Source of the DNA: Isurus oxyrinchus
Lineage: Eukaryota
Assembly: GCA_026770705.1 (NCBI GenBank)
Contig: JANJGN010000026.1
Location: 37,820,001-37,884,000 of the forward strand
Length of the DNA stretch: 64,000 nt
Direction: 5' to 3'
Shown: positions 17,393-57,193 of the stretch, one piece after another
Layout of the letters: each line of letters opens with the position of its first letter
How positions within the stretch are numbered: position 1 is the first letter of the stretch
Program-made: the position numbers and the translations under genes
The notes under the pieces: model-generated
What the model was told of the DNA's origin: nothing
Database searches by the model: none
The model's input: only the letters and a program-made list of their open reading frames with translations

Positions 17393-17716
17393 TAGTGAGT
17401 TCTGGAAGTTCAGTCTGACAGTGGTCAACAGAAGCCCAATAACTGAAAGGAATCTCGATGAGCATAAATTGCATCTATTCAACTTCCGATGTAAATTATT
17501 TTTTGCAGCTTCATCGTCAAAACCGGAACTCGGCACCAGCTTTCGGGCACATTCTTGTGGGAAGTACATTAAAGGCCGCTTTTCAGTCATTCGAAAAATA
17601 TCCAATAATATAGCTACTTCTACCTTGACTGGGCTTCAGGTCGCTGACAACCCCATATATGACTGTGTGCTGAGACCCTCAGTGAGAAAGCCCTCGGGGC
17701 AATTCGCACCAATAAA
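17393..17716 (+). pseudogene. TCR V alpha/delta pseudogene with degenerate 23-RSS
   Basis: Acceptor tttctgtag. VSSGSSV*QWSTEAQ*LKGISMSINCIYSTSDVNYFLQLHRQNRNSAP, frameshift, then GRFSVIRKISNNIATSTLTGLQVADNPIYDCVLR. RSS: CTCAGTG (17678-17684), 23 bp, ACCAATAAA. Confidence 0.85.
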
Positions 17717-18391: not shown

Positions 18392-19061
18392 ATGGGGAAT
18401 TACATCACACCCGGACCTCGTCATTATATCACTTCTTAGCAAGCATTTCCTTCCCAGAAAAAATCCGTTCTCCCCCTGACTGCTGTAACCCACGTGTTAT
18501 TAACTGTAAGGTGATGCTGCTGATGATGAAGCTACTTGAAATGATGATGATGATGATCCTGATAATGATGACATCTACCCGACTACTTTATGTTAGGATG
18601 GAGCCATCCACACACAGTAGTCGGGTCGGTTGCTGAAATGATGCCGAAGCTGAAATGATGCCGAAGCTGAAATGATGCCGAAGACGGCAGTAACACCATG
18701 TGATCTGAATCTTGAAAACATATCTCCACAACCATTCAAACAGTCATACGGACTCGAAACGTTAACTGTCTTCCTCTCCGCAGATGCTATCGGACCTGCA
18801 GAGTTTTTCCAGCTATTTTTATTTTTGTTCCATAACCATTTGTTCTGGTATAGTCAGCAGCCCGGGCAATATCCACAGCTCCGCAATAAACTGATCGATG
18901 TGAATGAAAACAAGAAGACAGACATTGTTGGTCAATTCTCTTCTACATTTAACAGATCCACCAAGATAACGGAGCTGAGCCTCTGATCTGCGACGCAGCC
19001 GAGTATTTCTGCGCACAAACCCCACACTGCGGCAGAGATTCGGCGCATCTCGGTCAAAATG
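18392..19061 (+). pseudogene. TCR V alpha/delta pseudogene disrupted by a 17-bp triplication and a Penelope-type insertion
   Basis: Decayed leader 18392-18438 (..LVIISLL, GC donor); exon from 18597. (GCTGAAATGATGCCGAA)x3 at about 18632-18682; repeat insert at about 18740-18830. NHLFWYSQQPGQYPQL...GQFSSTFNRSTK...DAAEYFCAQT. RSS: CACACTG (19023-19029), 23-24 bp, degenerate nonamer. Confidence 0.8.
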
Positions 19062-20712: not shown

Positions 20713-21186
20713 ATGGGAATCCTCCTTGTTTTCACCCTGTGTGTCTGTTTACCCCGTGAGTACCGATCAAACAAACCGACATTGTGTGGGTTTAATATAA
20801 AGCTGCCCGAGTCCATCCCAATTACAGACACTGTCTGGGGTTTTAACCCCGTTCTCTGGTTCGGCTCCAATGGTCCATTAAAGTCTCTCTGTTTAATTTC
20901 CAGGCTCCTTCAGTCAGTCAGTGACACAGACCCCGGCAGCGGTGACCAGGAAGGAGTGCCAGTCTCTCACCATCACCTGTGTTTTCTCCGGTGCTTCGTG
21001 GCATTATTTCCGAACGGGACATTTCTTCAAACAAACCCAGACCGGGACAGAGTGGGAGCGGATCTCCAGCGGGGGAAGATTTGTTGTGTCGGTGAATGAA
21101 GCACAAAATACATTTTCGCTGGAAATTCGGGAATTGAGAGTTGAGGACACCGCCACGTATTACTGTAAAGCTCAGTACTGGAGCAG
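20713..21186 (+). CDS. NAR-TCR V gene segment (IgNAR-like; leader 20713-20755, V exon 20904-21186)
   Basis: Leader MGILLVFTLCVCLP with GTGAGT donor; phase-1 acceptor tttccag. RSFSQSVTQTPAAVTRKECQSLTITCVFSGASWHYFRTGHFFKQTQTGTEWERISSGGRFVVSVNEAQNTFSLEIRELRVEDTATYYCKAQYWS. CDR2 is deleted as in VNAR (ERISSGGRF, YYCKA), with an extra FR1 Cys at 20957. Frame is open. Confidence 0.93.
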
Positions 21187-21224
21187 CACAGTGATGGGTC
21201 TCGGCTTCCCGCGATACAAAAACT
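21187..21224 (+). promoter_or_regulatory. RSS of NAR-TCR V (22-bp spacer, 23-class)
   Basis: CACAGTG, 22 bp, ACAAAAACT. Confidence 0.95.
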
Positions 21225-21551: not shown

Positions 21552-21624
21552 GGGTTTTATACTGATTTGTAACACTGTGTGGCAGGCTGGGGAAGTCACA
21601 GTGGGAAAGACCTGAGCAAATACC
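21552..21624 (+). other. NAR-TCR D segment (21580-21596) flanked by 12/12 RSS
   Basis: GGGTTTTAT-12-CACTGTG | TGGCAGGCTGGGGAAGT | CACAGTG-12-GCAAATACC; open in all three frames. Confidence 0.92.
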
Positions 21625-21938: not shown

Positions 21939-22027
21939 GGTTGTTGTATCGGGGACACTGAGAGCGGAGTCACTGTGGAAATATTATTATGTGGATGGAT
22001 CCGGGACGGTGGTGACTGTCACAGCTG
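21939..22027 (+). CDS. NAR-TCR J segment (21978-22027) with 23-RSS
   Basis: GGTTGTTGT-23-CACTGTG; KYYYVDGSGTVVTVTA; phase-1 donor G|GTAAGT. Confidence 0.93.
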
Positions 22028-24948: not shown

Positions 24949-25254
24949 ATTCCAGTTCCATGATATCCCAGAATCGGCCTGTACAAACCTCTCCTGCTGG
25001 TGACACCGTTACTTTAAGATGTGAATATTCAGGGCTCTGTCAATACACAGTACATTGGTACCTTCAGTCCCCCGGACAGGCTCCAGAATATCTGCTTCAG
25101 AGACACACTTCAGGAGAGGAGAACAAAGAAAACGCTGCCGGGGGGAGAATTTCTGCTTCTATTGATCCTGCCGAGAAAATCAGCTGGTTAAATATCTACA
25201 AACTACGACTGAGTGACTCCGCTGTGTATTACTGCGCCTTGAGTTGGCGCACAG
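24949..25254 (+). CDS. TRDV: Leaderless supporting TCR V-delta exon of NAR-TCR
   Basis: Phase-1 acceptor tcttccag matches the NAR J donor. DSSSMISQNRPVQTSPAGDTVTLRCEYSGLCQYTVHWYLQSPGQAPEYLLQRHTSGEENKENAAGGRISASIDPAEKISWLNIYKLRLSDSAVYYCALSWRT. Extra CDR1 Cys at 25038; no intact leader upstream. Confidence 0.93.
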
Positions 25255-25293
25255 CACAGTGATACAGAGCAGGCAGAGAGCTGTACAAAAACC
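25255..25293 (+). promoter_or_regulatory. Proximal consensus 23-RSS of the supporting V-delta
   Basis: CACAGTG-23-ACAAAAACC. Confidence 0.97.
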
Positions 25294-25316
25294 TGAACTT
25301 GGTGGGATTACAGACA

Positions 25317-25355
25317 CACAGTGATACAGAGCACGGAGAGAGCTGTACAAAAACC
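25317..25355 (+). promoter_or_regulatory. Second (distal) consensus 23-RSS, tandem duplicate
   Basis: CACAGTG-23-ACAAAAACC; spacer nearly identical to the first; 62-bp period. Confidence 0.95.
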
Positions 25356-25379
25356 TGAACGTGGTGGTTGTACACGAAC

Positions 25380-28035: not shown

Positions 28036-28595
28036 ATCAACCAACATTTTAATCTCTTCACACGATTCATTTTCTTCTGTTGTAAGCTGTGTCCTGTTTT
28101 CGTACTGACATTCTCATAGCAAACATGTGTTGCGCAGTTAAAGCTATTATCCGTCATCCTGGCGATGCGAACAGGTCGACTCAGGACAGTGACCCAATGA
28201 CCCAGATTGAGTTTTTCATTATTATTCTCGTTATTCCAGTGTTTCATGCCCTGAATATTTTTCCAGGTCGATGTTTCTCGGACCGTGTGCTTCAATCTCC
28301 CGCTTCGGTAATAGTCCAGAGCGGGGATTCGGGGCAGATTGTCTGCAGCTAAGAGGTGTCCGACCTCTACGCGATGCATTGGCACAGACAGAAATCTGGT
28401 CGGGACTGGAGTAGATTATAATGTAAGATATCGACTAGCAAAGAGAGAAGCGGGCGATTTGAACTGAATCTTTCTGAGTCGGAGAAACGCGGCCAATTGC
28501 TTATTGTAGACACGGGGAACGCCGATGCCGCGGTTTATTACAGTGCGGCTGAGACCCACACTGAGACAAAACGCGGCAGTCACTGTACAAAAACC
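28036..28595 (+). pseudogene. TCR V alpha/delta pseudogene with intact 23-RSS
   Basis: 46-nt leader 28036-28081 starting ATC (lost ATG) with GTAAGC donor. Exon from 28267: DRVLQSPASVIVQSGDSGQIVCS*EVSDLYAMHWHRQKSG, frameshift, then GRFELNLSESEKRGQLLIVDTGNADAAVYYSAAET (second Cys changed to Ser). RSS: CACACTG (28557)-23-ACAAAAACC. Confidence 0.9.
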
Positions 28596-43594: not shown

Positions 43595-43837
43595 TTGAAA
43601 ACAAAGAAAACTGCGGACGCTGGAAATCCAAAACAAAAACAGAATTACCTGGAAAAACTCAGCAGGTCTGGCAGCATCGGCGGAGAAGAAAAGGGTTGAC
43701 GTTTCGAGTCCTCATGACCCTTCGACAGAACTCAAGTTCTGTCGAAGGGTCATGAGGACTCGAAACGTCAACCCTTTTCTTCTCCGCCGATGCTGCCAGA
43801 CCTGCTGAGTTTTTCCAGGTAATTCTGTTTTTGTTTT
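43595..43837. mobile_element. Young Penelope-type palindromic insertion with a 14-bp TSD and hammerhead-like core
   Basis: Perfect 103-bp inverted arms 43630-43732 and 43735-43837. TSD AAGTTCTCATATAT at 43581-43594 and 43838-43851. Core CTGTCGA-stem-GAAACGTC. Confidence 0.85.
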
Positions 43838-55867: not shown

Positions 55868-56336
55868 ATGATGGCGCGGTTCCTGTACCTCAGTTTGTTC
55901 CTAGTTAGCTTTACTTGTGAGTGCTGAGGATTTATTGATCGCAGAGTCATTAAGATTTTAAATATTCTGGTTTAATTTGTTGCATTTTGAACTGTCTCTT
56001 TTCACGTAGATTTGCTCCTTTATAATTTGCTCGTAGGTATCCGGGCCAGCATTCTGCTAACCCAACCGGATTCCATCTCCAAAAACATTGATGACTCTCT
56101 CCAACTGTCTTGTGCGGTGAGTGGGTACGATATCAACCAACATCATATGCACTGGATTCGAGAGGTCCCCGTGGAAGGATTAGAATCCATACTCGCTGAT
56201 AGGAAAGGGTACAACACCGATTACGCGCCTGGAGTTCAAAGTCGAATCACTTTTTCAACTGAATCTTCCACAACCTATATTGAGTTGAATAATTTGAAAA
56301 CCGAGGACACGGCCACCTATTACTGTGCGAAGCAGT
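55868..56336 (+). CDS. IgH-like V gene segment (VH or TAILV-like; leader 55868-55916, V exon 56037-56336)
   Basis: Leader MMARFLYLSLFLVSFT with GTGAGT donor; acceptor ctcgtag. CIRASILLTQPDSISKNIDDSLQLSCAVSGYDINQHHMHWIREVPVEGLESILADRKGYNTDYAPGVQSRITFSTESSTTYIELNNLKTEDTATYYCAKQ. Frame is open; both canonical Cys and the Trp are present. Confidence 0.92.
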
Positions 56337-56377
56337 CACGGTGAGAGAAACCAAGGCTGGACCCAGGAAAAAAAACA
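56337..56377 (+). promoter_or_regulatory. 23-class RSS of the IgH-like V (variant nonamer)
   Basis: CACGGTG, spacer agagaaaccaaggctggacccag (23 bp), then GAAAAAAAACA. Confidence 0.8.
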
Positions 56378-56711
56378 GAACGTGGGGGAATCTAGATGCT
56401 CCAGGCAGAACACCTCGTTGAGAAGCAATGTTCGTAATGCAGTCTGACTCTGAACCTAGAGTTACCCCTTAGCAAATGAATTGTAGCAAAACAATTGTGT
56501 GCTTTCTCATGTGTATTATTTATAGCAAAAATGTTTGGAGACCCAGGGGCTAACGTTTCAACAATGCGCTATTGGAGGATTTTAGAAGGACTAGCGATAC
56601 ATTCCTATCGGTTGGAATGAATCTATCCTGCACACCTTCTCATCATTGACAGTAAAGCAAACGTTCGCGAGATGGAGTCTGAAAGTCAGGATTTGATCAG
56701 AAAGGGAATGC

Positions 56712-56786
56712 AGTATTTGTGCGGGCATGGGTTACTGTGATACTATGGGGTGGAGTATCACATTACTAACTGTCAACACAAAAAAC
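56712..56786 (+). other. IgH-type D segment (56740-56758) flanked by 12/12 RSS
   Basis: AGTATTTGT-12-TACTGTG | ATACTATGGGGTGGAGTAT | CACATTA-12-ACAAAAAAC; open in three frames (YYGVEY, ILWGGV, TMGWS). Confidence 0.88.
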
Positions 56787-57100
56787 CCGACAGAACTTAT
56801 AGGCTCAGTCTGGATCACTGGCCGGCGAGTATGAGTTCGCTATACATGTGGTGAAGTAGTGTTTATATTGTCATCCAGAACTGAAACCCTTGCCAGATTT
56901 AAGAGAGAGAGAAATGCTAGATAATTACTCAGGAATCAGTTGGTGATTGGAAGAAGTATTCAATTTGAGCAATCAAATGAGGAAAGACTGATGTATAAAC
57001 ATGAAAACTGTACATTTGTAATGATTTAGAAATCTATTGTTAGTTGTGCGATGTTACTTTCTAAAAGAATGGCCTCTTTCCTCAATTTTATGCAGGACCC

Positions 57101-57193
57101 ATTTATTGTGTGGCCCATTGCAGGGAAATGTAACACAGTGGTACTTATATCTTGACTACTGGGGACAAGGCACCAAAGTTACAGTGACGGCAG
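57101..57193 (+). CDS. IgH-type J segment (57141-57193) with 23-class RSS
   Basis: ATTTATTGT, 24 bp (22-24 depending on nonamer register), CACAGTG. YLYLDYWGQGTKVTVTA carries the heavy-chain WGxG motif; phase-1 donor G|GTAAGA. Confidence 0.93.

Follow-up and report, generated by a model that had tools for sequence, protein, structure and literature searches.

In the NAR-TCR, a doubly rearranging TCR-delta of cartilaginous fish, a leader-bearing NAR V with its D and J is followed by a leaderless supporting V-delta that has a CDR1 cysteine and a 23-RSS, and both this supporting V and the diagnostic cysteines of the NAR V are set out in the available text of PMC1845163. According to the accessible part of PMC2193808, the canonical 23-RSS consists of a consensus heptamer, a 23-bp spacer and a consensus nonamer, with the CAC at the start of the heptamer as its critical part. 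One such signal per segment end is the normal state. The locus described here shares the NAR-TCR arrangement, and its signals share the heptamer, spacer and nonamer of the canonical RSS, but it differs in that the RSS behind its supporting V has become the unit of a minisatellite, a tandem array of variable length of which no mention was found in the available text of PMC1845163.

The NAR-TCR and RSSs are known already, whilst a variable tandem RSS array behind the supporting V-delta is probably new. We did not find one described in the literature, although a prior mention in the primary NAR-TCR papers or their supplements is possible; the available texts of PMC12227049, PMC1845163, PMC9248892, PMC3457774, PMC5931798 and PMC2193808 mention none, and the elephant shark genome supplement gave no match for the terms searched.

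The NAR-TCR cassette and its tandem signals

The window, the whole stretch of 64,000 nucleotides that was analysed (G000:C26:37820001-37884000), contains a cassette on the forward (+) strand that begins with a NAR-TCR V leader exon (20713..20755), comprising an ATG, 14 hydrophobic codons and one further base ahead of a GT donor, with an N-terminus as in shark gene models. The NAR-TCR V exon (20904..21186) has an open frame with a cysteine in the a-b loop region and a WYRK motif that lacks its W, features which, with the leader, agree with the NAR V of a NAR-TCR cassette, and it is followed by a single copy of its RSS (21187..21224), with a 22-bp spacer. A D segment (21580-21596), to which no strand was assigned, has a 12-RSS on either side (21552..21624 in all), and the J (21978-22027), with a GT donor and a 23-RSS on the minus strand (21939-21977), completes a feature at 21939..22027. 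As in a NAR-TCR cassette, D and J lie between two V genes and the RSSs are complementary (a 22-RSS on the V, 12/12 on the D and a 23-RSS on the J).

The supporting V-delta exon (24949..25254, +) starts 2.9 kb downstream of the NAR J, has an open frame and a CDR1 cysteine, and could be spliced in phase to the NAR J, the splice phases being compatible; the cysteine and the phase were read from the sequence, and the absence of a leader was judged by eye. Both this V and the NAR V match the Pfam V-set. The 56 longer homologues were mostly shark and ray gene models that fuse a NAR V and J to a supporting V-delta, and in these relatives the NAR J is spliced straight onto the supporting V-delta. The first-pass annotation had named the gene as an NAR-TCR supporting V-delta, and this is borne out by the cysteines, the phase and the gene models of relatives: judged from its sequence, the gene at 24949..25254 is the leaderless supporting V-delta of an NAR-TCR.

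Directly behind this exon lie two repeat units on the same strand. Unit 1 (25255..25316) consists of a perfect 23-RSS (25255-25293) and a 23-bp linker, and the terminal unit 2 (25317..25378) of a second perfect 23-RSS (25317-25355), which agrees with the consensus in heptamer, 23 spacer and nonamer, and a linker that diverges past approximately 25366. These are the only two exact CACAGTG-23-ACAAAAACC signals in the window, whereas 100 shuffles of the window gave an expectation of 0 perfect 23-RSSs. Over the 62-bp period the copies share 47 of the first 50 bases and 6 of the last 12, and hence represent about 1.8 copies; of the claim that a 62-bp duplication had given two perfect 23-RSSs, the two signals proved exact, but the duplicate is not a complete one. 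Alignment of the copies confirmed that their differences are confined to two spacer bases and the flank. Both spacer changes are private to copy 1, and the whole RSS of copy 2 equals the family majority. Tandem Repeats Finder reported no repeat for the two-unit array. The V frame ends in RTAQ and a stop, the TGA sitting within the first heptamer, which upholds the earlier reading that cutting at the distal RSS would put a stop in frame while the first RSS stayed intact; this heptamer stop after the supporting V is common to the whole family and not peculiar to the window copy.

Several further elements were recorded in the window. A broken TCR-type V, with stops and a near-perfect 23-RSS, lies at 28275-28595, 3 kb 3' of the array, and additional broken V remnants occur at approximately 17455-17666 and 18846-18983. 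An IgH-like set at 56039-57190 comprises a V, with a frame open across the aligned part and an RSS with a 24 spacer, a D (56740-56758) between two 12-RSSs, and a J with a WGQG motif. A near-perfect (99%) palindrome of 208 bp is located at 43630-43837, with related single arms at 18743-18829.

Distribution of the array within the genome and among sharks

Thirty paralog loci were picked by BLAST (the best 40 of 606 DNA-search candidates were scored, giving 30 loci), and all 30 harboured 2-10 units. A larger set combined BLAST-picked and place-chosen loci, with L090 left out as a duplicate of L012, and comprised 68 loci with 57 distinct arrays, a V being directly upstream of the array at 64 of the 68. 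The first-pass annotation had raised the question of whether other supporting V-deltas carry the duplication, and a multi-unit array was found at 65 of these 68 loci (2-10 units) and one unit at the other three, diverged terminal units being included in the counts. Loci L104, L105, L115, L117, L119 and L120 were fetched later and stand outside the statistics. Single-RSS cassettes with an open V frame do exist (L037, L045 and L115).

A genome-wide search for a perfect 23-RSS with a heptamer closely 3' retrieved 62 matches, all of them the 62-bp array unit, compared with 0 for the control. C26 accounts for 39 of these, at 23-39.3 Mb; the other 23 are spread over eight small contigs that may include haplotigs. 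Within the fetched DNA, a copy of 70% similarity was present within 200 bp of 111 of 116 unit RSSs versus 0 of 57 other RSSs. The searches demonstrate, at the level of sequence, that the tandem RSS array is restricted to the NAR-TCR supporting V-delta family, in nearly all of the members examined.

Head-to-tail units of tens of bases, numbering 1-10 across the 68 loci with the variation lying among paralogs, correspond to a minisatellite. Unit length itself varies, and the variants of 50, 56-61 and 63 bp speak against helical phasing, according to which 62 bp would approximate six turns. In the 50-bp variants (L004, L033-L036, L039, L042, L044 and others), and also in the 56-bp variants (L020, L021 and L024), a linker deletion reaches precisely to the heptamer that follows. 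Six ‘truncated’ terminal units were put to the test, and five proved to be old diverged units (their score was reached by at most 7 of 500 shuffles); for the sixth, a terminal tail of the L050 type, 465 of 500 shuffles reached the score, and it is unrelated to the unit. Two arrays were orphans, one (L048:7903) lacking a V anywhere in the 10 kb retrieved and the other (L105:1422) fused into the middle of another, broken V. A palindromic heptamer-heptamer 14-mer also occurs in many copies in unrelated tandem repeats of the same assembly (C7:7.11-7.15 Mb, C18:25.5-25.6 Mb and C23:13.2-13.3 Mb of G000).

The same question had been raised about other individuals and species, and tandem units are also present in another sample and in other organisms. 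A 167-nt contig (X18) from another sample of the same organism covers two units and enters a third, the V exon lying outside the coverage of X18 and of X21 (RNA, by guess). Tandem units were present in contigs of organisms B, C, D and E, and a 668-nt contig of organism C contains a V and then several units. In Hemiscyllium ocellatum (epaulette shark), gene model P0041 translates consecutive units past the V end (E 1e-14 over two units), and P0023, P0026 and P0038 include translated units that are more degenerate. Model P0020 of Pristiophorus japonicus (sawshark) holds one unit and the beginning of another, whilst ENA record P0048 holds about five units, counted by eye. The gene models of rays do not extend past the V, and the cross-species evidence for the array from gene models comes from sharks. 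Sawsharks and carpet sharks are members of the two main shark lineages. The array is old, and since tandem units occur in a second sample, in four other organisms and in the gene models of two sharks, it is neither an artefact nor private. The two circumstances in which the first-pass reading was to be abandoned, an assembly artefact or a private duplication, both fail in view of the paralog arrays and the contigs from the other sample and other organisms.

Tests of selection on the first and inner units, and an inherited joint

With CpG columns excluded, substitutions per site among unique first units were 0.007 in the heptamer and 0.013 in the nonamer, versus 0.080 in the spacer and 0.090 in the linker, and the corresponding values among unique inner units were 0.052 and 0.066 versus 0.085 and 0.079. 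Mutation events were counted on minimum spanning networks, comparing RSS columns with spacer and linker columns combined. For first units the ratio of RSS to other events was 0.25 (p 0.0015) in the 30 BLAST-picked loci and 0.23 (p 2e-5) in all loci; for inner units it was 0.83 (p 0.17) and 0.89 (p 0.22; 95% interval 0.66-1.15), and first and inner units differed with Fisher p values of 0.025 and 0.0008, respectively. Part of the larger locus set was chosen by perfect RSSs, and the p values of these selection tests are optimistic because the units are related (paralogs, possible haplotigs and conversion).

Purifying selection on the heptamer and nonamer of inner units was hence not detected (ratios of 0.83-0.89), the interval of 0.66-1.15 being compatible with weak constraint. 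The critical CAC and nonamer A columns of inner units changed like the others (4.4 vs 4.9 events per column). Inner units behind the 36 strictly intact Vs gave a ratio of 0.73 (p 0.08, 95% interval 0.50-1.09), under a strict integrity rule that classes L037, L045 and L004 as broken despite their open frames.

Among 113 unique inner units, 105 retain the 23 spacer, 78 look usable by our own rule (a CAC start, a spacer of 22-24 and no more than two changes in the nonamer) and 32 are perfect. The V-linked loci have at least one usable-looking distal RSS in 55 of 64 cases and a perfect distal RSS in 33, and all 36 strictly intact Vs are accompanied by two or more units. Unit number showed no relation to V integrity (p 0.44), nor to how far a copy lies from D-delta on C26 (rho -0.25, p 0.12, n 40), and was slightly higher in deletion-oriented than in inversion-oriented copies (p 0.03, the copies being non-independent).

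At C26:29964820 (L032:1820-1821), the 5' 12-RSS of a NAR D and an array RSS meet head to head with nothing lost between them, and the NAR D, the J and the supporting V are deleted. A copy on C242 (L104, about 380.2 kb), in a cassette approximately 88% identical to that on C26, has the same signal joint with one changed base, and two such diverged copies point to an inherited event. Of 95 genome-wide matches to the signal-joint pattern, one was in the C26:29964820 region and 94 fell in unrelated repeats or at isolated sites; the C242 copy was missed due to its changed base. The joint demonstrates that some array RSS was cut once in what would be a RAG-type reaction, although the cut unit, first or inner, could not be assigned for want of diagnostic sequence. 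It constitutes direct sequence evidence for germ-line RAG-type cutting within a TCR locus, and germ-cell rearrangement has been reported in the nurse shark (PMC2193156, available part). NAR Vs apparently pre-joined in the genome to D or D-J were also observed, at G000:C242:539859 and in L117.

The two V-less cassettes, on C26 and C242, encompass arrays of 4 and 7 units, indicating that array length changes without a V to serve. The first-pass annotation had cast the distal RSS as a decoy, a second chance or an aid to recruitment, and such a role is unsupported: selection on inner heptamers and nonamers went undetected, array length does not follow V integrity or distance from D-delta, single-RSS cassettes have open V frames, and V-less arrays behave alike.

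A C-delta exon query returned 2 matches among 28 candidates, one on C26 (minus strand, 29.90 Mb) and one on C242, and ahead of each C-delta lie a single D with 12/23 RSSs and a set of J-like motifs, 10 on C26 and 11 on C242. The further downstream 12-RSSs that had been presumed earlier are present, as one D and 10-11 J-like segments per cluster. The two clusters (G000:C26:29.90-29.93 Mb and G000:C242:590-619 kb) are either paralogs or very divergent haplotypes. Given a correct assembly and no missed C-delta, the window V is approximately 7.9 Mb from the C26 D-delta and in the opposite orientation, and inversion is required for 23 of 40 C26 copies to join. Geometrically, a distal join would be non-productive yet possibly rescuable, by deletion or inversion.

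Explanations for the array and related systems

We consider it rather likely that the window holds the two-unit form of a variable-number array, the 62-bp unit of which is a 23-RSS plus linker, and that this array is a selectively near-neutral minisatellite. Since clear conservation is seen in the first copy alone, the others are likely to be hitch-hikers, which could still misdirect or delay gene assembly. Unequal crossing-over or slippage would re-copy the selected first unit into inner positions, with older units becoming stranded at the 3' end of the array, and such re-copying would account for arrays that persist for long while their units steadily decay. An inner RSS is probably cut by RAG at times, giving a joint with an in-frame stop, after which RSS1 would adjoin the 10-11 J 12-RSSs and may rearrange again; rescue by RSS1 would keep the cost small, so that selection would neither maintain nor remove the surplus units. 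If selection acted on how many usable signals a locus has, constraint on any one redundant copy would be relaxed and the outcome would resemble this near-neutral pattern, and confinement to one V class and presence in distant sharks would also be predicted by a function.

A functional account in which several strong RSSs raise the odds that the D-J recombination centre catches a cassette megabases away is unlikely, but is the best placed of the alternatives. A silent distal join, carrying the stop, would bring the cassette beside the J array, RSS1 would then join a downstream J, and the delay would let the NAR V-D-J step finish. The RSS stack would in that case, and with the same low chance of being correct, be a tunable antenna and ratchet, whereby any distal copy captures the cassette, the stop keeps RAG on and RSS1 completes on a later J, repeat number setting the frequency and the delay with which each NAR-TCR is produced. 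The remoteness and opposite orientation of the window V (approximately 7.9 Mb), with inversion needed by 23 of 40 C26 copies, suit such an account, but arrays do not grow longer with distance, and those of inversion-oriented copies tend, if anything, to be the shorter ones (p 0.03, the copies being non-independent). Usable-looking distal RSSs are retained at most loci, and one D and 10-11 J 12-RSSs would allow repeated tries, but selection on inner RSSs was undetected, the assembled contigs of the public runs showed no somatic joint, and single-RSS cassettes with open V frames occur (L037, L045 and L115). In mouse lines, strong RSSs permit capture on a scale of over 2 Mb (bioRxiv 10.64898/2026.10.10.757971, available part). 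Because each redundant copy would be under less selection and such distant capture is helped by strong RSSs, the account retains some plausibility.

We regard as improbable a local throttle or suicide decoy, in which the surplus 23-RSSs act as competitors for the 12-RSSs of the NAR D, 3.7 kb off, delete the D, J and supporting V, and limit NAR-TCR output in the manner of the kappa-deleting element. The very product that it calls for occurs as a fixed, precise signal joint of an array RSS with the 5' 12-RSS of the NAR D, both at C26:29964820 and in the diverged C242 copy, but this is a single ancestral event in which the cut unit is not identifiable and for which one RSS suffices, and inner-unit selection was undetected.

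Little more can be said for a RAG-made origin, which we hold to be just as doubtful and which bears on origin and not function; the first duplication and some length variants would stem from germ-line RAG cuts, an intact signal end having been rejoined to a trimmed neighbour. The 50-bp and 56-bp variants (14 and 3 loci) end exactly at the heptamer, the 50-bp form without microhomology, but these are probably two independent events only, and other linker indels are located elsewhere. Germ-line RAG-type joining is evident at the inherited joint and reported in the nurse shark (PMC2193156, available part), but the V end and the linker end share an ACAG microhomology before the heptamer, which suffices for ordinary slippage.

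An assembly artefact or private duplication is already refuted for the array family and is exceedingly improbable, as, although none of the contigs listed bridges the exact unit 1-unit 2 junction of the window copy at full identity, units differ in family-specific ways at 57 distinct arrays, the other-sample contig spans two units, and organisms B-E have tandem units.

The usual view is of one RSS per segment end; an array of up to ten that is family-wide and shark-wide offers a natural experiment in how RAG chooses among adjacent signals and in what a locus tolerates. If the array is neutral, surplus perfect RSSs would be cheap to carry where many J segments permit rescue, and it would matter to the annotation of shark TCR loci; if functional, it would be a new means of adjusting V usage and of putting two rearrangements in sequence.

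Minisatellites (VNTRs) are made up of head-to-tail units, with variable copy number, higher-order duplications and diverged terminal units, and the array is alike in each of these respects; unlike an ordinary minisatellite, its unit is a functional recombination signal and its first copy is selected. The kappa-deleting element and deltaRec are RSSs without coding sequence, the use of which leads to a non-productive or deleting product. They are single conserved elements, whereas the array units are many, variable and not detectably conserved (inner-unit ratio 0.83-0.89). VH replacement is a second RAG reaction via an embedded cryptic RSS. As could happen here, that reaction replaces a failed joint by way of a remaining RSS (cryptic RSSs, cRS, are tabulated in the available part of PMC2193808), but it brings in a new upstream V, whilst here the same V would serve again. 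In successive V-J rearrangement at TCR-alpha (PMC5931798, available part), a remaining RSS also lets a second RAG reaction replace a failed joint, but a new upstream V is used, whereas here the same V would be reused and the first joint would fail by design.
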